From: Nanobdellota archaeon | GTDB taxonomy: Archaea; Nanobdellota; Nanobdellia; CSSed11-243R1 | Direction: 5' to 3' | Length of the DNA stretch: 53,966 nucleotides | NCBI GenBank assembly: GCA_021163365.1 | Contig: JAGGWW010000012.1 | Location: 1 to 53,966 of the forward strand | In this document: one piece after another, positions 20,344-51,394 of the stretch | Layout of the letters: each line of letters begins with the position of its first letter | How positions within the stretch are numbered: position 1 is the stretch's first letter | Translations under genes and position numbers: made by a program | Notes under the pieces: model-generated | Told to the model about the DNA's origin: nothing | What the model saw: the letters and a program-made list of their open reading frames with translations, nothing else | Database searches by the model: none

Positions 20344-20364
20344 TCACAAAAAGTATCTATTTAA

Positions 20365-20650
20365 GAAGTTTTCTAAAGCGGGCGGGCGCGCCAGCTCTCG
20401 AGAAACCGCACCAGTGGCAGTCCCCAGACCTTTTCTCCACCCCGTATCCTAAGAGCACACGCTATTCTGCTTAGGGCTGCTCCATCCCTGGCCTGACCCG
20501 GTTCACAGAATAACGCATCCCTTAGGGCGAGGCTTCTTAGATACGGCCTGGGCTTACCAAAAATGCGGTAACCCTCAAGCTGGCTTCGGCCCCCCATAAG
20601 GACGGTTTGGGGTTAACAGGCCACGCCCAGCGGCCCACCTAGCCCGCCCA
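20365..20650 (-). ncRNA. signal recognition particle RNA (archaeal 7S/SRP RNA)
   Basis: GC-rich island in an AT-rich genome. The minus strand starts GGGCGGGCUAGGUGGGCCG and ends GCGCGCCCGCCCGCUUU, so the termini pair. Alu-domain motifs CCUGUUAACC and GGGGGGCCGAAGCC are present, as is the helix 8 motif GGGUCAGGCCAGGGAUGGAGCAGCC. About 285 nt. Confidence 0.85.
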
Positions 20651-20678: not shown

Positions 20679-20744
20679 GGTTTCATAAAAGAACTATTTC
20701 AAAACTTCCTTTTGTAAGCAGTATAGAAAAAGCCCCGGGTGGGA

Positions 20745-20794
20745 CTTTCACAACCCTTTCTTTCCCAAGGCTTTCTTCGGGAAGAAAGGGTTGG
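20745..20794 (-). other. T-loop 59/60 intron of tRNA-Thr (50 nt)
   Basis: BHB drawn by eye: T stem GUGGG/CCCAC, 4-bp helix UUCA/UGAA, bulges AA|C and AG|U, and inner helix CAACCCUUUCUU../..AAGAAAGGGUUG. Confidence 0.75.
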
Positions 20795-20816
20795 TTTGAA
20801 CCCACGACCTTCGCCT

Positions 20817-20832
20817 CCTTGGATTTAAAGTT
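20817..20832 (-). other. canonical 37/38 intron of tRNA-Thr (16 nt)
   Basis: BHB drawn by eye: anticodon stem UCGCC/GGCGA, 4-bp helix UUGG/CCAA, and 3-nt bulges UA|A and GG|A. Confidence 0.75.
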
Positions 20833-20852
20833 TACCAAGGCGACGCTCTACC

Positions 20853-20901
20853 GATTTCTCCAACCTTTCTTTGGTTGAGCTTTCTTTCCCAAAGAAAGGT
20901 C
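20853..20901 (-). other. D-loop insertion/intron of tRNA-Thr (49 nt; boundary ambiguous by 1 nt)
   Basis: Removal restores the canonical D arm GCUC-AGCUGGUA-GAGC. The insert contains a perfect 12-bp hairpin ACCUUUCUUUGG/CCAAAGAAAGGU. I could not draw a clean BHB. Confidence 0.55.
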
Positions 20902-20940
20902 AGCTGAGCCACCGGGGCTTAAGAAGTCCAATAACCTTTT

Positions 20941-20948
20941 TATTTAAA
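20941..20948 (-). promoter_or_regulatory. TATA box for tRNA-Thr
   Basis: Minus-strand TTTAAATA lies 23-30 nt upstream of G1 of the tRNA. Confidence 0.5.
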
Positions 20949-30306: not shown

Positions 30307-31845
30307 TTAAACATATTTCTCAAGAATTTCTTTTACTTTTTCTCTGCCAATGTTTTCAATTAATTCAAACAATCTAGGACCTCTTTCTTTGTTTAGCAAA
30401 ATCTTATAGCACACTTTAAAGAACTCCTTTCCAAGCCCGCTTTCTTTTCCAATCTCATAAAGCATGTTCTCAGTTAAACCATCAATTTTTTCAATTAACA
30501 TCTTAATTGCTTGCTTTTCGTTATCGCTTAACTCAAAATGCTTTTCTTCGTGTATTTGGAATTTGTACTTCTCATCTGCATATTTATCTGCCCAATTCCT
30601 TGCCATGTTTATTAGCATTCTAATTCTTTTATCATCAAATTCGTTTAAAGTTTCTTTTAAGTGCCCTGTTTGTTTTAGTTTCTTAATTACCTTATCATCA
30701 TCTCTATAGATTTGTGATAAGAACACCAAATACTTAAAAGGTATCTCAATTGGCAATTCTTTTGGCATCTTAATCATAGACATCTCATAAACTCTTTTCA
30801 GATGCTTTTTCTTCTTTTCATCAACTTCTTCTTTTCCAAAGTAAACTCTTTCTGTGAAGTAAAAATCTTCATAAACCTTAAATATCTCATCATCCATTGG
30901 GATTGCAAATTCTGTATTTGGCCTTGTTCCTGCGTAAAAGTATCTCACAAGTTCTGGAAGATAAATTTCATTTAAATCCTTTAAAGCAATTACATTGCCT
31001 TTTGAACCAGACATTTTCCCTCCTTTACCTTTTAATATTACAAAATCATACATTTGATAAATTGGTGGCTCATAGTTAAAAATCTCCTTTGATATAATAG
31101 AAGATGTATCTCTACTTCCACCTAATGTTGAATGCTCTTTTCCACCAGGTTCAAAGTCAACATTATAATATCTCCAACGCATTGCCCAATCAACTCTCCA
31201 TCTTAACTTAACAACACCTTGCTTAGAAAAATCTATTTCTTCTTCATTTCCACATTTGCATTTATATCTTATCTTATATTCTCCATCATAAGAAATGATT
31301 TTTGTAAAATCCTTTCCACATTTAGTGCAATAAATTTGTACAGGGTACCAATCACTTGGTAGGGGTTCTTTTCTAAACCTATTTAGAATTTCCATTATTT
31401 TTTCTCTTTTATTTAATGCCTCTTTTATCCCATCTTTATATTTACAAGCACCGTACTCTTTATGTTCATAAACATATTCTGGTTGAACACCAACAATTTT
31501 TGCAGCTTCTTCAAATTCCTTTTCAAAATGCTCACCATAACTTTTATGACAACCCCAAGGGTCTGGGACTTTTGAAACAGGCATTCCAATATATTCTTCC
31601 CATTCTTTTGGTACATTTGCTGGAACCTTTCTAAACCTGTCGAAATCATCCCAAGAGTGAATATATCTAACCTTTACACCTTTATCAAGCAAAGCACGTC
31701 TTACAATTTCAACAGTCATTTCTTCTCTAAAATTTCCTATGTGAATAGTTCCACTTGGTGTGATACCGCTTGCAATAACATAAACATCTTTGTTTTTCTC
31801 TAAAATCTTATTTGCAATTTTATCTGCCCAATAAACATCTTCCAT
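30307..31845 (-). CDS. lysK: class I lysyl-tRNA synthetase
   Basis: HIGNFRE (HIGH-type) and KMSGSKGN (KMSKS-type) motifs, a CTKCGK...CKCG zinc insertion, and 512 aa. Confidence 0.9.
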   Translation of the reverse strand: MEDVYWADKIANKILEKNKDVYVIASGITPSGTIHIGNFREEMTVEIVRRALLDKGVKVRYIHSWDDFDRFRKVPANVPKEWEEYIGMPVSKVPDPWGCHKSYGEHFEKEFEEAAKIVGVQPEYVYEHKEYGACKYKDGIKEALNKREKIMEILNRFRKEPLPSDWYPVQIYCTKCGKDFTKIISYDGEYKIRYKCKCGNEEEIDFSKQGVVKLRWRVDWAMRWRYYNVDFEPGGKEHSTLGGSRDTSSIISKEIFNYEPPIYQMYDFVILKGKGGKMSGSKGNVIALKDLNEIYLPELVRYFYAGTRPNTEFAIPMDDEIFKVYEDFYFTERVYFGKEEVDEKKKKHLKRVYEMSMIKMPKELPIEIPFKYLVFLSQIYRDDDKVIKKLKQTGHLKETLNEFDDKRIRMLINMARNWADKYADEKYKFQIHEEKHFELSDNEKQAIKMLIEKIDGLTENMLYEIGKESGLGKEFFKVCYKILLNKERGPRLFELIENIGREKVKEILEKYV

Positions 31846-35371: not shown

Positions 35372-35503
35372 TAGCCCCGCGCGGACTTCCGAGCACCCAC
35401 GGATTTTCTTTCCGTGCACGCTTTCTTTTTTAAGAAAGGGTGCGTTCGAACCGCGGTCACAGGGTCCAAAGCCCTGTATGCTTGGCCACTACACCACGGG
35501 GCT
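35372..35503 (-). tRNA. tRNA-Gln (anticodon UUG) with a 59-nt intron at T-loop position 59/60
   Basis: The minus strand reads AGCCCCG UG GUGU AGUGGCCAA GCAU A CAGGG CUUUGGA CCCUG UGAC CGCGG UUCGAA[59 nt]U CCGCG CGGGGCU A. An oligo-U tract follows the 3' end. Confidence 0.85.
35386..35444 (-). other. T-loop 59/60 intron of tRNA-Gln (59 nt)
   Basis: BHB drawn by eye: T stem CGCGG/CCGCG, 4-bp helix UUCG/CGGA, bulges AA|C and AG|U, and inner helix GCACCC/GGGUGC with one extra U. Two internal hairpins: CUUUCUU-AAAAA-AGAAAG and CACGGA-AAGAAAA-UCCGUG. Confidence 0.75.
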
Positions 35504-36704
35504 ATCTCTTTGGAGGCTTACCTCTTCCTCGTATTGCTCCGCCTCTTTTTACTGCATAATAATTTTTCCCTTCTCTTTTTTTGTACTTCTTTTGAAGTTG
35601 GGTTAAAAGCCTGTTAAATGCATCCTGCAATGTAAACATTAAATTATAACCATACCATGGCTCTTTACTTGTTACTACTTCTCCTCTGCCAGCTGACTTA
35701 AGCAAATGAACTTTAATTTCGTAATTCCATTTCTCTGGTGTTGCACCATGTATTTTCTTTATATGTATGTTTATGCTTTCTAAATCTGGGCATATTTGCT
35801 TCATCTTTCTTATGTCTGATTTTAAGTAATCCTTTATTAATTCTATTGTTTCAATTTTTAATGGAAATCCTGAGAAGTGCAACCAAACACCCTCTTTAAA
35901 CTTTCTTTCAGCAAGCTTATCTAAAACTTTCCATCTTTCAAATAAACCAACAACCTTCTTCTCATCATCAACAACTGGAACACCCTTCATGTTTCTATCC
36001 AAAAGAGATTTAAGAACATTAGAAACACTGTCTTTTGGTTTAACTTCTGGCAAATCTCTTATAATCAAAGACTTAACTGGCATTGAAAATGGATTAATCG
36101 CCTTTCCTGCCCTGTCTTTTCTTCCAAGCTTTTCTTTTGGTTTTTTGTAAAATGTTCTTAAAATGTCTAAAGAAGTTATAGCACCTAAAAGTTTTCCTTC
36201 TTCATCAACAACTGGAAGCATGTTCCATCTATTGTGCCTCATCCATCTTCTTGCTTCTGATACACTTTCATCTTCTGTAAGAACCTTTATCTCCTCTTCC
36301 ATAACATCTCTTACTTTGAGCCCTTTTATTCTTCTATCATTTAACAGGCTTTTTAATATATCATAATCAGAAATTAAACCAACAAGTTTTTCCCCATCTA
36401 AAACAGGTATTGCTTCAACACCTGTTTTTACCATAAGCGTTATTACATCTCCAATAGGTGTATCTGGAGAAACAATGGGTGGCTTAATCATTAAAGTTGA
36501 CACTTTTTCTTCTGGGTCAGCCCTTACAAAGTCAAGAATATCGTAGTACGTAACCATGCCAACAAAAATTCCATTTTCAACAATTGGCACTTCTTTTATT
36601 CCATATCTTTCCATCTTTGAAACTACTTTTTTTATTTGTTCATCTGGAGAAGCAGTCTTTACATTTTTAGTCATGATATCTTTAGCTGTTTTCAAATTCA
36701 TCAC
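35502..36704 (-). CDS. four-CBS-domain protein with C-terminal HPF/RaiA (S30AE)-like domain
   Basis: Four consecutive CBS repeats (each ending ..G(I/L)(V/I/F)(T/S)..D(I/V)L). The last roughly 120 aa (LHFSGFPLKIETIELIKDYLKSDIRKMKQ...INIHIKKIHG...YEIKVHL...FTLQDAFNRLLTQLQKKYKK) follow the beta-alpha-beta-beta-beta-alpha sequence pattern of hibernation promoting factor. Confidence 0.7.
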   Translation of the reverse strand: MMNLKTAKDIMTKNVKTASPDEQIKKVVSKMERYGIKEVPIVENGIFVGMVTYYDILDFVRADPEEKVSTLMIKPPIVSPDTPIGDVITLMVKTGVEAIPVLDGEKLVGLISDYDILKSLLNDRRIKGLKVRDVMEEEIKVLTEDESVSEARRWMRHNRWNMLPVVDEEGKLLGAITSLDILRTFYKKPKEKLGRKDRAGKAINPFSMPVKSLIIRDLPEVKPKDSVSNVLKSLLDRNMKGVPVVDDEKKVVGLFERWKVLDKLAERKFKEGVWLHFSGFPLKIETIELIKDYLKSDIRKMKQICPDLESINIHIKKIHGATPEKWNYEIKVHLLKSAGRGEVVTSKEPWYGYNLMFTLQDAFNRLLTQLQKKYKKREGKNYYAVKRGGAIRGRGKPPKR

Positions 36705-44615: not shown

Positions 44616-44620
44616 TCTTT

Positions 44621-44815
44621 TTTACCTTTCCTTTTTCCGTAAACGCTTTTGAGCGTGCGGAAAAGGGTTTGATGCTTCAGCGAGCGCATTCGAGGCAGCA
44701 CCTTCCTCTTCCCCCAAGGAAGGGCTGCCTTATCATGCTCTCATCCTAGAGAGCACCCCTTTGCCCTATGACCCGGCTGCAGACTACTTCTAACTGAAAA
44801 GCCGGGTAGGGCAAA
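44621..44815. ncRNA. GC-rich multi-hairpin element between convergent genes (candidate structured RNA; strand and function unknown)
   Basis: At least four stable hairpins in a row: CCUUUUUCCG..ACGCU-UUUG-AGCGU..CGGAAAAGG; GGCAGC-A-CCUUCC-loop-GGAAGG-GCUGCC; UGCUCUC-AUCCUA-GAGAGCA; UGCCCUA-UGA-CCCGGCU-loop-AGCCGGG-UAGGGCA. GC content is clearly above the flanks. Confidence 0.35.
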
Positions 44816-46462: not shown

Positions 46463-46657
46463 ATGAATTACAAGTTAATAATACAACCTGGAAGTCAACC
46501 AAGTGGTGCATATAAGATAAAGCTAGATGCATATATGCCTCTCCGCGCAACAATAGGCGATGTTCCAAACAATATTCCACCAAACACATATGGAAAGATG
46601 ATTGGTGGAATATATAGACAACTAAATAATTTATTAGATATTGGTAAGAAAAAGTAA
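46463..46657 (+). CDS. hypothetical small protein
   Basis: 64 aa counted from the ATG at 46463, which is preceded by AGAGGTGA at ideal spacing. The track ORF begins at an upstream TTG. Confidence 0.4.
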   Translation: MNYKLIIQPGSQPSGAYKIKLDAYMPLRATIGDVPNNIPPNTYGKMIGGIYRQLNNLLDIGKKK

Positions 46658-46688
46658 ATTAATAAACTGCTTCTTCTTTTATTTTTGT

Positions 46689-47954
46689 ATGGCTAAGCCA
46701 GGAGATTTAGTTGAGATTGTAACAAAAAACAAAAAGTATGTTGGTATCTTGATGCCAAAACCAGAAATAATTAAGAGCAATACAATTGTCATTAAGCTTG
46801 ATTCTGGATACAACATTGGTATTGAAAAAAAGAAGATTAAAAAAATTAAAGTAATTAAAAAAGCAAAAAAGGGAAAGAAAAAGAACATAAAAATAAAACA
46901 AAGTAAAAAGCTTCCAACTGTTTCAATTCTTTCAACTGGTGGAACAATTTCTTCAAAAGTGGATTATAAAACAGGAGGAACCTATGCATCTTTAACAGCA
47001 GAAGATTTCATTCAGCTTGAACCAAAGATTTTAAAATTCGCAAACATAAGAGCAAAGCAAATAGAACAAATCATGAGTGAAGACATGACTCCAGAGCATT
47101 GGATTAAAATAGCAAAAGAAGTTTATAAAGAGTTAAACAAAAAAGAGGTTTCTGGTGTTGTAATAACACATGGTACAGATACAATGCATTACACAGCTGC
47201 TATGCTTTCTTTTATGTTCCCAAAACTTTCAAAGCCAATTGTGCTGGTTGGTGCTCAACGCTCAACAGATAGAGGTAGCAGTGACACTTTTATGAACTTG
47301 ATTTGTTCTGTTATTGCTGCAACACAAAAGATTGGAGAGGTTATGGTTTGCATGCATGCAACAACAAATGATGACTTCTGCTATCTCCATCGTGGAACAA
47401 AAGTTAGAAAAATGCACACAAGCAGGAGAGATGCTTTTAGATCCATAAACCAAATGCCAATTGCAAAAATATGGCCAGATGGAAGAATCAAATTTTTAAT
47501 TAATTACAAAAAACCAGATAAAACCAATGAATTAAACATAAAAATAAACAAAAAAGTAGCTCTCATCTATGTTTATCCTGGAATAAATCAAAATATTATT
47601 GATTATTATTTGAACAAAGGATATAAAGGGATAGTCATAGCAGGAACTGGCTTAGGACATGTTCCAACATATTTAATTCAAAAAATTAAAAAAGCAGTTA
47701 AAAAAGGAGTTGCTGTTTGCATAACATCCCAGTGCTTTTATGGAAGAACACATTCATTTGTATATTCTAATTTAAGAAGGTTATCGCAAACTGGAGCAAT
47801 ATTTTGTGAGGACATGCTTCCAGAAGTAGCTTATGTTAAACTTATGCATGTTTTAGGAAAAACAAAAAAATTGGAAAAAATAAAAGAATTAATGCAAAAG
47901 AACATTGCTGGAGAAATTAATCCAATTATTTCAAAAGATATGTTTTTGGTGTGA
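46689..47954 (+). CDS. gatD: Glu-tRNA(Gln) amidotransferase subunit D
   Basis: N-terminal MAKPGDLVEIVT beta-domain and an asparaginase-like core (LSTGGTISSK, ITHGTDTM). Start taken at 46689 rather than the track's 46641. Confidence 0.9.
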   Translation: MAKPGDLVEIVTKNKKYVGILMPKPEIIKSNTIVIKLDSGYNIGIEKKKIKKIKVIKKAKKGKKKNIKIKQSKKLPTVSILSTGGTISSKVDYKTGGTYASLTAEDFIQLEPKILKFANIRAKQIEQIMSEDMTPEHWIKIAKEVYKELNKKEVSGVVITHGTDTMHYTAAMLSFMFPKLSKPIVLVGAQRSTDRGSSDTFMNLICSVIAATQKIGEVMVCMHATTNDDFCYLHRGTKVRKMHTSRRDAFRSINQMPIAKIWPDGRIKFLINYKKPDKTNELNIKINKKVALIYVYPGINQNIIDYYLNKGYKGIVIAGTGLGHVPTYLIQKIKKAVKKGVAVCITSQCFYGRTHSFVYSNLRRLSQTGAIFCEDMLPEVAYVKLMHVLGKTKKLEKIKELMQKNIAGEINPIISKDMFLV

Positions 47955-49819
47955 ATATGGATTACAAAAAAATAGGGTTAAAATGCGGATTAGAAATTCA
48001 TCAACAGCTTGATACGCACAAGCTTTTTTGTAAATGTCCTTCTGTTTTAAGAGACGATACTCCACATTTTGAAGTTAAAAGAAAGCTAAAAGCAGTTGCA
48101 GGAGAAATGGGAAAAATAGACATTGCTGCAATTTCTGAGCAAGCAAGGGAAAAAATATTCGTATACGAAGGTTACAATGACACAACGTGCTTAGTTGAAT
48201 TAGATGAAGAGCCACCACATAAATTAAACCAAGAAGCATTAGAAATTGGTTTACAAATTGCACTTCTCCTTAACATGAAGCCATTTGATGAAATACAAAT
48301 TATGAGAAAAACAGTTATTGATGGTTCAAACACTTCTGGATTTCAAAGAACAGCATTAATTGCTGAAGATGGATATATAGAAACAAAAGATGGAAAGGTA
48401 CGTGTTAACATGCTTGCTTTAGAAGAGGATTCTGCAAGAAAAATAAAGGAAGCATATGGTGAAGTACGTTTTAGATTAGATAGATTAGGCATCCCTCTTG
48501 TTGAGCTAAGAACAGAACCAGATATATTTACACCAGAACAAGCAAAGGAAGCAGCAGAAAAAATTGGTTTGTTGATGAGAATGACTGGAAAAGTAAAAAG
48601 AGGGATTGGAACAATAAGACAAGATATAAATGTATCTATAAAAGGTGGGGAAAGAGTTGAAATAAAAGGAGTTCAAGAATTAAATGACATTCCAAAGATA
48701 ATTAAACTTGAAATAGAAAGGCAACAAAGCTTGATAGAGATAAGTAAAAAGCTAAAGCAAAGAAAAGCAAAGCTTGAAAAAAAATTCTTTAGTATTAAAA
48801 AAATTTTAGAGAAATCAGAATCTAACTTAGTAAAAAAAGCAATTGAAAATGAAGAAGAAATAATCGCTGTAAAGCTTTCTGGATTTGCAGGTTTATTGAA
48901 GAAAAAAATTCAAGCTGAAAGATATCTTGCTAAAGATTTAGTTGAATATGTCAAGCATTTTACAGGAATTAAAGGATTTATTCATTCTGACGAGCTTCCA
49001 AATTATGGAATCTCTGAAAACGAAGTTTTTCAAATTAAGAAGTTTTTAAATTGTAAAAACGAAGATGCATTTGCTTTTGTTTTTGCTGAAAAAGAATTAG
49101 CAGAAAAAGCACTTTCATATTTAATTGATAGATGCCAACAGTATGTAAAAGGTGTTCCAAAAGATGTTAGGGATGTAAATGATGATTGCACAACAAGATT
49201 CTTAAGGCCAATGCCTGGAGCTGCAAGAATGTATCCAGAAACTGATGAAATTCCTGTGCCAATTACAAAGGAATTGTTAAAGAAGATAAAAATACCAGAA
49301 AAGCCTGAAGAAAGACTTGCGAAGTTCAAAAAATGGGGGCTTTCAAATGATTTAGCTAATCAAATTTTGCACAGCCAAGATTTAATTACATTTGAAGAGC
49401 TTGTTAAAAGGTTTAAGAAAATCTCTCCAACAATCATTGCATCAACTCTTTTATCAACAAGAGACGAGATAAGAAAAAGATATGGTATTGAAACATCTCC
49501 AATTAAAAAGAGACATTTTGAAGAAACCTTTGAGCTGTTAGATAAAGGAAAAATAGCAAAAGAAGCAATTGTTGAGATTTTAGCTCACTTAGCTGCAAAA
49601 CCACAAATGACTGCTGAAGAAGTTGTTAAAAAATTAAAACTTCAAAAGATTTCTATAAAAGAGTTAAGAAAGATAATTAATAAAATCATTGATGAAAACG
49701 AAGAGCTTGCAAAAAACAAACAATTCAAAGTCCTCATGGGATTTGTTATGCGCAAAGTGCGTGGAAGAATTGATGGCGAAATTGTTGCAAAAGAGCTGAA
49801 AAAGGCGCTAGAGAAATGA
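47951..49819 (+). CDS. gatE: Glu-tRNA(Gln) amidotransferase subunit E
   Basis: GLKCGLEIHQQL N-terminus, the GatB/E core, an AspRS-like insertion and a C-terminal YqeY-like tail. 622 aa. Start is GTG at 47951 or ATG at 47957. Confidence 0.9.
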   Translation: MNMDYKKIGLKCGLEIHQQLDTHKLFCKCPSVLRDDTPHFEVKRKLKAVAGEMGKIDIAAISEQAREKIFVYEGYNDTTCLVELDEEPPHKLNQEALEIGLQIALLLNMKPFDEIQIMRKTVIDGSNTSGFQRTALIAEDGYIETKDGKVRVNMLALEEDSARKIKEAYGEVRFRLDRLGIPLVELRTEPDIFTPEQAKEAAEKIGLLMRMTGKVKRGIGTIRQDINVSIKGGERVEIKGVQELNDIPKIIKLEIERQQSLIEISKKLKQRKAKLEKKFFSIKKILEKSESNLVKKAIENEEEIIAVKLSGFAGLLKKKIQAERYLAKDLVEYVKHFTGIKGFIHSDELPNYGISENEVFQIKKFLNCKNEDAFAFVFAEKELAEKALSYLIDRCQQYVKGVPKDVRDVNDDCTTRFLRPMPGAARMYPETDEIPVPITKELLKKIKIPEKPEERLAKFKKWGLSNDLANQILHSQDLITFEELVKRFKKISPTIIASTLLSTRDEIRKRYGIETSPIKKRHFEETFELLDKGKIAKEAIVEILAHLAAKPQMTAEEVVKKLKLQKISIKELRKIINKIIDENEELAKNKQFKVLMGFVMRKVRGRIDGEIVAKELKKALEK

Positions 49820-50643: not shown

Positions 50644-51015
50644 ATGAAAAAAGAAGTTAATTATGTTTTAAACAAATTAAAAAAGATACCAGAAGTTCAG
50701 GCAGTAATTCTTTTTGGCTCTTATGCAAAAAAAGAACAAAAACCATATTCTGATATAGATATAGCAGTGGTTTTAAATCCAATAAATGAAGAGGTAGAGG
50801 ATGAGATATTTTCTCTATCTTCAAACTCGTTGGATGTCGTCCCATTTAACAAGGTTCCACTTTATATTCAATTTGAAATTTTGAAACATGGAAAAATTTT
50901 ATTTATGAAAAACAAAAGATTTTTTACGGATTTGGTTTATAAAATAATTAGCAACTATCTTGAACAAACAAGAATGTACAAAATCATTGGTGAGCAGATT
51001 GGAGCTAAGATTTAA
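50644..51015 (+). CDS. minimal nucleotidyltransferase (MNT-type antitoxin)
   Basis: ILFGSYAKKEQKPYSDIDIAVV (GSx10-12DxD) in a 123-aa protein. Confidence 0.75.
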   Translation: MKKEVNYVLNKLKKIPEVQAVILFGSYAKKEQKPYSDIDIAVVLNPINEEVEDEIFSLSSNSLDVVPFNKVPLYIQFEILKHGKILFMKNKRFFTDLVYKIISNYLEQTRMYKIIGEQIGAKI

Positions 51016-51394
51016 AACAATTGCTTTAAGAATATTAAAGCACATAAAAACTTCTAGAGAGTTAGTTAGAGAAAACTTAGATGATAAAAAAATTTTCGAC
51101 GCTCTTTCAATGAATTGCTTTCAAACTGTCAATTCTTTAATTGATTTAGCAGAGCTCATAGTTTCAAAGAAATTACTTGGGTTTCCTGCTAACTATTCAG
51201 AACTTTTTGAACTTTTGCATAAAGGAAAAATAATAACAAAAGATGAATTGAAAGCATTTAAAAAGCTAATAAAATATAGAAATTTAATCGCACATGAGTA
51301 TTACCAAATAACTAAAAAAGAAATATATAACATGGTTTCACTTTTCACACATATTGAAAGATTATTAAAAAAGGCCTCCAAGTTGATAAAATGA
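50960..51394 (+). CDS. HEPN/DUF86 (HepT-type toxin) protein
   Basis: YRNLIAHEY carries the Rx4H HEPN motif. The start is uncertain: in-frame TTG/GTG at 50987/50990 would shorten the overlap with the MNT gene. Confidence 0.7.
   Translation: MNKQECTKSLVSRLELRFKTIALRILKHIKTSRELVRENLDDKKIFDALSMNCFQTVNSLIDLAELIVSKKLLGFPANYSELFELLHKGKIITKDELKAFKKLIKYRNLIAHEYYQITKKEIYNMVSLFTHIERLLKKASKLIK

Follow-up and report, generated by a model that had tools for sequence, protein, structure and literature searches.

The stretch analysed here (hereafter the window) is a contig of 53,966 nucleotides assigned to a Nanobdellota archaeon (GenBank assembly GCA_021163365.1, contig JAGGWW010000012.1). On its minus strand (20918→20731) it carries a 188-nt locus that is probably a working tRNA-Thr(GGU) gene of an AT-rich and uncultured DPANN archaeon, interrupted by three bulge-helix-bulge (BHB) introns that would be spliced out by proteins. 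The anatomy of the gene, the geometry of its BHB motifs, the conservation of its exons, the paralogy of its introns and the empty intron sites in a relative are read directly from the DNA. Two of the introns contain a repeat module that recurs, inside and outside tRNA genes, in many other archaea. A previous sequence-only reading had recognised the locus at 20731-20918 and its three intervening sequences, located in the D-loop, at 37/38 and at 59/60; the present analysis retains all of these and corrects the orientation of the gene, which lies on the minus strand.

As that reading had proposed, the excision of 49, 16 and 50 nt yields a canonical 73-mer, in which the acceptor, D, anticodon and T stems comprise 7, 4, 5 and 5 bp, all of them Watson-Crick pairs, and the anticodon and T-loops 7 nt each. 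The product displays U8, A14, G18, G19, U33, G53, U54, U55, C56, A58 and C61, and the invariant and semi-invariant nucleotides, read from the spliced sequence, are kept in both of the D-loop splice models compared below. With a GC fraction of 0.49 the locus is one of the few GC-rich islands of a contig of 31% GC, and its folding compared with that of shuffled sequences gives z = -5.4. The ACU and ACC codons, which number 139 among the 11,471 codons of the window, imply under archaeal decoding rules that a threonine tRNA with G34 is needed. The TATA-like box TTTAAATA located upstream of the gene (Table 1) is taken as its promoter from the usual spacing of archaeal TATA boxes.

The gene escapes standard annotation. 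ARAGORN calls no tRNA in the whole window, with or without its intron option, and gives tRNA-Thr(ggt) for the spliced 73-mer, so that the check with this program suggested by the sequence-only reading succeeds on the spliced product and fails on the unspliced locus. At the gathering threshold, the sole Rfam match in the window is the signal recognition particle (SRP) RNA; the unspliced tRNA-Thr is missed, its central part scoring 18.8 bits against the Rfam tRNA model (RF00005) for a gathering threshold of 29 bits, as expected for a gene with three introns. The IMG gene caller misses it as well. On an identical JGI contig (L004), a hypothetical open reading frame (ORF) of 40 aa (2714-2836, corresponding to 20683-20805 of the window) is called over the 3' part of tRNA-Thr and another of 79 aa (2389-2628, corresponding to 20358-20597) over the SRP RNA, which indicates that both RNA genes are unannotated in public data.

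Splice sites were sought by scanning for a BHB, defined as a 4-bp central helix (H) with two 3-nt bulges cut after their second nucleotide and flanked by the outer helices h and h'. At 59/60, intron 3 presents the strict hBHBh' form, with H made of UUCA/UGAA (4/4 pairs), bulges AA|C and AG|U, the 5-bp T stem as h and an h' of 12 bp; the unconstrained minimum free energy (MFE) fold of the precursor itself draws this motif. At 37/38, intron 2 has H UUGG/CCAA (4/4), bulges UA|A and GG|A and the 5-bp anticodon stem as h, and its h' is limited to a single A-U pair closing a 7-nt loop. The textbook motif previously drawn for both introns is thus present at 59/60, and the one at 37/38 is a relaxed version of it. 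A box C/D guide RNA inside the introns was also considered and rejected, as the C box is absent from their sequence.

The D-loop intron was more difficult to place. The product of the sequence-only reading, with the D-loop AGCUGGUA, implies a cut at 17/18 or 18/19, where no BHB exists. When every pair of cuts in the D-loop is enumerated, the best BHB is found at 15/16, where the intron is likewise of 49 nt and the product likewise of 73 nt, with a standard 8-nt D-loop, AGUCGGUA. In this motif GCUC, on the 5' side of the D-stem, is paired with GAGA, a decoy within the intron for the other strand of that stem, giving 3/4 pairs in H, with bulges AG|C and AA|U, an h' of 12-14 bp and an h of 2 bp. 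Related introns provide further guidance: in more than 12 of them, from other archaea, the 5' cut falls exactly 1 nt before a 3-4-nt foot that precedes C-CUUUCUU, and two are introns of the same kind at 15/16, namely L070 (tRNA-Asp; GUGUAG|U-ACA-C-CUUUCUU, H GUGU/GCAC, 4/4) and L181 (GCUCAG|U-UGA-C-CUUUCUUU, H GCUC/GAGC, 4/4). Because the best BHB and these homologous introns coincide there, the D-loop intron of tRNA-Thr would most likely be cut at 15/16, provided that the gene is functional. Three observations argue in the other direction. The motif is relaxed, with a G10·A mismatch in H and an h of just 2 bp; the MFE fold (-87.1 kcal/mol) retains the D-stem rather than the D-loop BHB, although the conformer of the latter, at -84.2 kcal/mol, lies only ~3 kcal/mol above it; and the orthologous tRNA of the closest relative, described below, has a D-loop, AGCUAGUA, that is nearer to AGCUGGUA.

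The same gene with the same three introns could be spliced at 17/18, or equivalently at 18/19, into a product with the D-loop AGCUGGUA. Its cloverleaf would be equally good and it agrees with the orthologous tRNA at positions 16-17. We consider this unlikely, because these cuts lack any BHB-like motif (0-1 of 4 pairs in H, an h' of 0-1) and would leave part of a covarying foot helix (U17, G18) in the exon, whereas all other members of the intron family keep the entire module within the intron and are cut 1 nt ahead of the foot, the homologous D-loop introns of L070 and L181 being at 15/16 with H 4/4. The alternative D-loop cuts 16/63 and 21/70 were discarded as they yield non-standard D-loops.

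Comparison with relatives of the host supports the exons. The closest protein relatives, 45-52% identical, are 'Nanoarchaeota archaeon AUK188', 'archaeon Dive96_bin10.467' and Ca. Woesearchaeota, in agreement with the DPANN-like host that had been presumed from the sequence. Scanning for the shared intron core retrieved an orthologue of the tRNA gene in Dive96_bin10.467, the closest relative (locus L259, 3330-3450, minus strand), on a contig that also bears a homologue of the ORF neighbouring tRNA-Thr in the window. This gene is a tRNA-Thr(GGU) with an Rfam tRNA score of 51.2 bits; it has a single intron of 48 nt, at 37/38, and uninterrupted D- and T-loops. The spliced tRNA-Thr of the window is 88-90% identical to it, the two differing at positions 55 and 69 only from G26 to the 3' end, and the differences at 4-69 (C-G to U-A) and 12-23 (U-A to G-C) are compensatory. 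The 59|60 junction of the window restores exactly a sequence that is contiguous in Dive96, which identifies the latter as an empty site. Moreover, the 37/38 intron of Dive96 is almost identical to intron 1 of the window over UGACCUUUCUUUGG[A/G]AAAGAAAGCUCAACCAAAGAAA[A]GGUUG, indicating that the same intron occupies different positions in orthologous genes. These comparisons point to a gain or relocation of introns since the Dive96 lineage branched off, and the recent gain suggested by the sequence-only reading finds support in the uninterrupted D- and T-loops of the orthologue. L259 itself carries A18 and G55 in place of the G18 and U55 of nearly all tRNAs, which may reflect a coordinated change of the tertiary pair between the D- and T-loops.

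Other searches for homologues were less productive. The neighbouring 488-aa ORF matched two GTDB relatives, in which it is adjoined by other tRNAs; for the neighbouring Na/Ca exchanger, no relatives above 48% identity were found, and an exact-protein look-up returned the same strain only. The exon pattern of the T-loop, searched with a gap, had one match, in Rhodoglobus, by chance, and that of the anticodon arm had 0 matches in metagenome contigs and 0 in genome contigs. The intron-less exon pattern matched only bacterial tRNA-Thr genes (Dormibacterota, Chloroflexi); the block extending from the D-arm to the anticodon arm is identical over 32 nt to an intron-less bacterial tRNA-Thr(GGU), and is uninformative on D-loop positions 16-17.

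The interruption of tRNA-Thr is not an isolated case in the window. A tRNA-Gln(UUG) gene, missed by ARAGORN and by Rfam at the gathering threshold, contains an intron at 59/60 with H UUCG/CGGA and bulges AA|C and AG|U, the removal of which gives a clean 73-nt tRNA-Gln, so that both tRNA genes of the window are interrupted at this position. Introns 1 and 3 of tRNA-Thr and the tRNA-Gln intron are paralogous: their pairwise alignment scores are 36-49, against ~10 ± 6 in shuffles, and 0/2000 shuffles reach the observed score. The three share the core CCUUUCUU-loop-AAGAAAGC-…-GAAAGAAA, and that of tRNA-Gln has a nearly identical counterpart in AUK188, where it interrupts another tRNA (L174). tRNA-Thr accordingly belongs with the multi-intron genes with transposed introns, having three introns and similar ones at different positions and in different tRNAs. 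The H' strand of the intron tracks the exon across lineages in 8/9 complete 59/60 introns, UUCA pairing with UGAA or UGGA and UUCG with CGAA or CGGA. The first nucleotides of tRNA-Gln overlap the stop codon of a CBS-domain ORF (35502-36704, minus strand), and the two may therefore be co-transcribed.

Some observations limit the confidence placed in a working gene. ARAGORN is a permissive program, which passes very many artificial deletion and splice variants of the region, and its call alone is weak evidence. The same strain (99.94-100% identity) is present in two JGI and two ENA assemblies, and three contigs of this strain spanning the tRNA locus carry it unchanged; as these are identical copies from a single strain, variation within the species provides no test of the structure. 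Genes for EndA and RtcB were not found in the window with Pfam and NCBIfam. A tRNA gene that is dead or dying, with copies of a dispersed repeat inserted in its D- and T-loops, the functional tRNA-Thr(GGU) being encoded at another locus of the genome, would be compatible with the multi-copy nature of the inserted core, which is also free-standing and without orientation bias in the intergenic DNA of other archaea, with the imperfect D-loop BHB and with a genome coverage of 54 kb only. We regard it as improbable, since the four exons are intact and conserved with respect to the relative, with compensatory changes in the stems, and the TATA-like box and the T-run are in place. In addition, the inserts end in 4 nt complementary to their own exon (UGAA/UUCA in tRNA-Thr, CGGA/UUCG in tRNA-Gln, GAGA/GCUC in the D-stem), and such introns are carried by both tRNA genes of the window and by tRNAs of many isotypes in other DPANN genomes. 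That the cloverleaf is an artefact of three freely chosen deletions in structured GC-rich intergenic DNA devoid of any tRNA gene deserves hardly any credence and appears effectively refuted by the comparative data: the tolerance of ARAGORN for artificial deletion products of the region would allow it, but the exon blocks match the Rfam-validated tRNA of the nearest relative and break exactly where that gene is contiguous, the 32-nt block is shared with intron-less bacterial genes, and a strict BHB stands exactly at 59/60.

The intron core proved to be widespread. Contigs were scanned with the pattern CCTTTCTT-N3-5-AAGAAAGC-N4-10-AAAGAAA; as the scans use exact patterns, the counts are lower bounds biased to the subtype of the query, and the copies are not phylogenetically independent. 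At least 120 contigs from metagenomes matched, as did at least 119 from GTDB genomes; of the latter, 118/119 are archaeal among the matches listed. A virus-borne element was rejected as an explanation, with 1 match in 2.9 million viral contigs. Two types of occurrence can be distinguished. In DPANN and Altiarchaeota (Aenigmatarchaeota, Micrarchaeota, Iainarchaeum and Woese-/Nanoarchaeia being among the hosts), introns at 59/60 and at 37/38 each account for at least 10 copies, and, among the matches listed, 3-4 lie in 15/16 introns, 7 begin directly after the 3' end of a tRNA, and the copies near a tRNA T-arm are 31 in sense versus 2 in antisense orientation. In ANME-1/Methanophagales, Methanosarcinales, Syntrophoarchaeum, Bathyarchaeia and others, it forms a uniform free-standing repeat, AAACCTTTCTTT-NNAA-AAGAAAGCTTTACCAAAGAAA, with several copies per genome, mostly intergenic and unbiased in orientation with respect to the flanking ORFs.

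The module, of ~40 nt, combines a foot helix and a C·C mismatch with a CUUUCUU/AAGAAAG stem and a purine tract in mirror image, GAAAGAAA. Three pairs outside the conserved C·C mismatch covary: 152-159 of 164 distinct copies have them paired, a level that none of 500 shuffles reaches, and they include AU, UA, GC, CG and GU types. The order of a class II intrastrand triplex (CCUUUCUU, loop, AAGAAAG, linker, GAAAGAAA) is respected in the three module-bearing introns of the window and in more than 240 other copies. Among 175 distinct pairs of third tract and purine strand of the stem, the mirror image fits better in 87 and the direct repeat in 33, and at least 10 asymmetric variant families fit the mirror only (for instance AAGAGAAAG to AAAGAGAAG and AAAAGAAAAAGAAAG to AAAGAAAAAGAAAAA). 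A direct repeat, acting as an alternative pairing partner, was discarded since it fits these variant families less well, and the mirror-image arrangement is compatible with antiparallel reverse-Hoogsteen pairing. The layout matches the class II intrastrand triplex motif, a resemblance rather than an assignment to that class. Purine-motif triplexes accommodate RNA strands poorly, which would speak for a role at the DNA level. The module has no Rfam match as a known RNA family.

Layouts of this kind have been described in bacteria, where the BoxC, PIT and TMECO repeats are 34-37 nt long, intergenic and orientation-neutral (Holder et al. 2015, PMC4666352). The archaeal module, of 34-40 nt, shares with them the succession of pyrimidine tract, loop, purine tract, linker and mirror purine tract, highly conserved stems with variable loops, and a multi-copy, intergenic distribution without orientation bias. 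It has no sequence homology to them, its triplex being predicted from sequence, and differs by being A/U-rich where they are G/C-rich, by the additional covarying foot helix of 3-4 bp and the conserved C·C mismatch, and by its presence in DPANN inside tRNA introns and directly 3' of tRNAs, in sense orientation. Literal searches of the literature found no paper containing the module sequence, and we could not find an earlier description of a link between tRNA introns and an archaea-wide repeat of triplex type.

The distal purine tract of introns 1 and 3 continues into GG(G)UUG and pairs with the pyrimidine tract to form the h' of the BHB, so that the hairpin or triplex fold of the module and the splicing-competent fold would be mutually exclusive. 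The distribution of the repeat fits a selfish, recombination-prone or mobile element that persists in the discarded parts of tRNA transcripts (introns and trailers); it also fits an RNA or protein-binding module the ends of which are set by tRNA-processing nucleases. The predominance of sense copies in tRNA genes speaks for a mechanism that is polar or acts at the RNA level, and the orientation-neutral intergenic copies favour a DNA-level element. We tentatively propose, as a possibility still well short of an even chance, that the repeat seeds BHB introns and moves them, acting either as a mobile or recombination-prone element or as an RNA set free when tRNAs are processed. If true, it would be the so-far missing vehicle of intron gain and transposition in archaeal tRNAs, the spread of which is by a mechanism still called unknown in reviews (PMC4090602). 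In either case the shared intron core and dispersed repeat offer a concrete and testable handle on this spread.

Several individual copies show particular arrangements. In L048 and L081, the two tRNA-antisense copies, 16-22 nt of the tRNA 3' end are duplicated and flank the repeat, which looks like the footprint of a DNA-level insertion or duplication. The repeat also occurs in tandem or degenerate tandem in L056, L034 and L214. In ANME-1 an inverted variant family (UUUUCUUUUU/AAAAAGAAAA stem and matching mirror tract) forms pairs with it, which recalls REP/BIME-like arrangements.

For the tRNA-Thr gene, we infer the following course of expression. Transcription would start just downstream of the TATA-like box and end at the T-run after U73, giving a single pre-tRNA of ~190 nt, in which EndA would cut each intron in two 3-nt bulges 4 bp apart. 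The T-stem and UUCA/UGAA would present the strict BHB at 59/60; the anticodon stem and UUGG/CCAA would supply the central helix and both bulges at 37/38, with the 5' site adjoining the loop; and in the D-loop, the pairing of GCUC with the intron decoy GAGA would expose AG|C and AA|U for the cut at 15/16. An RtcB-type ligase would then join the four exons (15+22+22+14 nt), followed by the addition of CCA. The paralogous introns, namely 1 and 3 and that of tRNA-Gln, have the conserved archaeal repeat module at their core. The two relaxed motifs imply an endonuclease of broad specificity. The literature ties introns with relaxed motifs to the α2β2, ε2 and L3-loop α4 enzymes (PMC5829648), and the enzyme need not be of the α2β2 or ε2 type anticipated by the sequence-only reading, the L3-loop α4 type being also possible. 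ARMAN-2 is reported to possess an ε2 enzyme and Woese-/Pacearchaeota an α4 with the L3 loop.

Three groups of organisms offer points of comparison. Thermoproteales tRNAs have up to three introns each, with similar introns at different positions (PMC4033280, PMC4090602, PMC8450103), a situation named 'intron transposition' (work of Sugahara 2008 and Fujishima 2010 that the same three papers summarise). As far as these summaries describe them, the multi-intron tRNAs of Thermoproteales resemble the present ones by their near-identical introns in different tRNAs and positions and by their relaxed BHB motifs. They differ by their hosts, which are hyperthermophilic crenarchaea, whereas a mesophile-like DPANN of 31% GC is involved here, and by the core of the mobile introns, which in the present case also recurs, as a dispersed repeat, in archaea of other phyla. 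Closer to the host, Ca. Micrarchaeum ARMAN-2 has a pre-tRNA-Cys with a 59/60 intron and a pre-tRNA-Pro(GGG) with 53/54 and 59/60 introns (Fujishima 2011, PMC3239211). Kaneta et al. (2018, PMC5829648) reported that DPANN lineages rich in disrupted tRNA genes have an EndA of the α4 type bearing an additional loop, 'L3'; they also found tRNA disruption to be increased in Woese-/Pacearchaeota and suspected that some disrupted genes had escaped detection. The window shares with these cases (PMC3239211, PMC5829648) a DPANN host, the use of 59/60, more than one intron per tRNA and genes missed by standard finders, and differs from ARMAN-2 by three introns distributed over the D-, anticodon and T-loops of one tRNA-Thr. 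Lastly, a three-intron tRNA with introns in its D-arm, its anticodon arm and its T-arm is known in the red alga C. merolae; its distribution over the three arms is the same, in a eukaryote whose endonuclease complex is of another kind and whose introns are unrelated in sequence.

Multiple and 59/60 introns are consequently established both in DPANN and in Thermoproteales (PMC3239211, PMC5829648, PMC8450103), and the sequence-only reading, which considered triple-intron tRNAs as rare and known chiefly from Thermoproteales, overstated their rarity in view of the ARMAN-2 genes; the tRNA-Thr gene is one more example. The comparison with Dive96 catches intron gain or relocation in the act outside Thermoproteales, with a nearly identical intron of tRNA-Thr(GGU) at 37/38 in Dive96 versus 15/16 in the window and an additional related copy, at 59/60, in the genome of the window only. 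Such genes, invisible to ARAGORN, Rfam and the IMG pipeline, help explain the tRNAs 'missing' from DPANN bins, which distort estimates of completeness and codon capacity.

Table 1. Coordinates of the tRNA genes, their parts and other features of the window.
Feature	Position	Strand	Remarks
TATA-like box TTTAAATA	20941..20948	-	-30..-23 (23-30 nt upstream of tRNA position 1), read from sequence
tRNA-Thr exon 1 (GCCCCGGUGGCUCAG)	20904..20918	-	tRNA positions 1-15
tRNA-Thr intron 1, D-loop	20855..20903	-	49 nt, most likely 15/16; repeat module 20902-20866
tRNA-Thr exon 2 (UCGGUAGAGCGUCGCCUUGGUA)	20833..20854	-	tRNA positions 16-37, anticodon GGU
tRNA-Thr intron 2 (AACUUUAAAUCCAAGG)	20817..20832	-	16 nt, 37/38; without repeat module
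tRNA-Thr exon 3	20795..20816	-	tRNA positions 38-59
tRNA-Thr intron 3	20745..20794	-	50 nt, 59/60; repeat module 20793-20757
tRNA-Thr exon 4	20731..20744	-	tRNA positions 60-73, discriminator U73, CCA not encoded
T-run (UUUU)	20727..20730	-	directly 3' of U73; likely terminator
SRP (7S) RNA gene, archaeal	20380..20649	-	Rfam 143 bits; 81 nt downstream of tRNA-Thr, same strand
Class I lysyl-tRNA synthetase (LysRS)	30307-31845		
tRNA-Gln(UUG)	35372..35503	-	132 nt; 59-nt intron at 59/60 (35444-35386); repeat module 35443-35404
GatD/GatE	46641-49819		
Nucleotidyltransferase (MNT) and HEPN-type ribonuclease pair	50644-51394	+	likely toxin-antitoxin module

The remainder of the window contains archaeal markers, including L15e, L10e, TFE-alpha, Nre, class I LysRS, GatD/GatE, Elp3, RNase Z and FtsZ. 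No tRNA was recovered from the GC islands at 44.6 kb and 39.9 kb after removal of up to two BHB-like introns. A GC-rich and strongly structured intergenic segment of ~200 nt (44616-44815), which separates ftsZ from a convergent ORF, finds no counterpart in Rfam at E ≤ 1; with folding z-scores of -5.8 on the minus strand and -7.4 on the plus strand, it is a candidate for a novel structured RNA.

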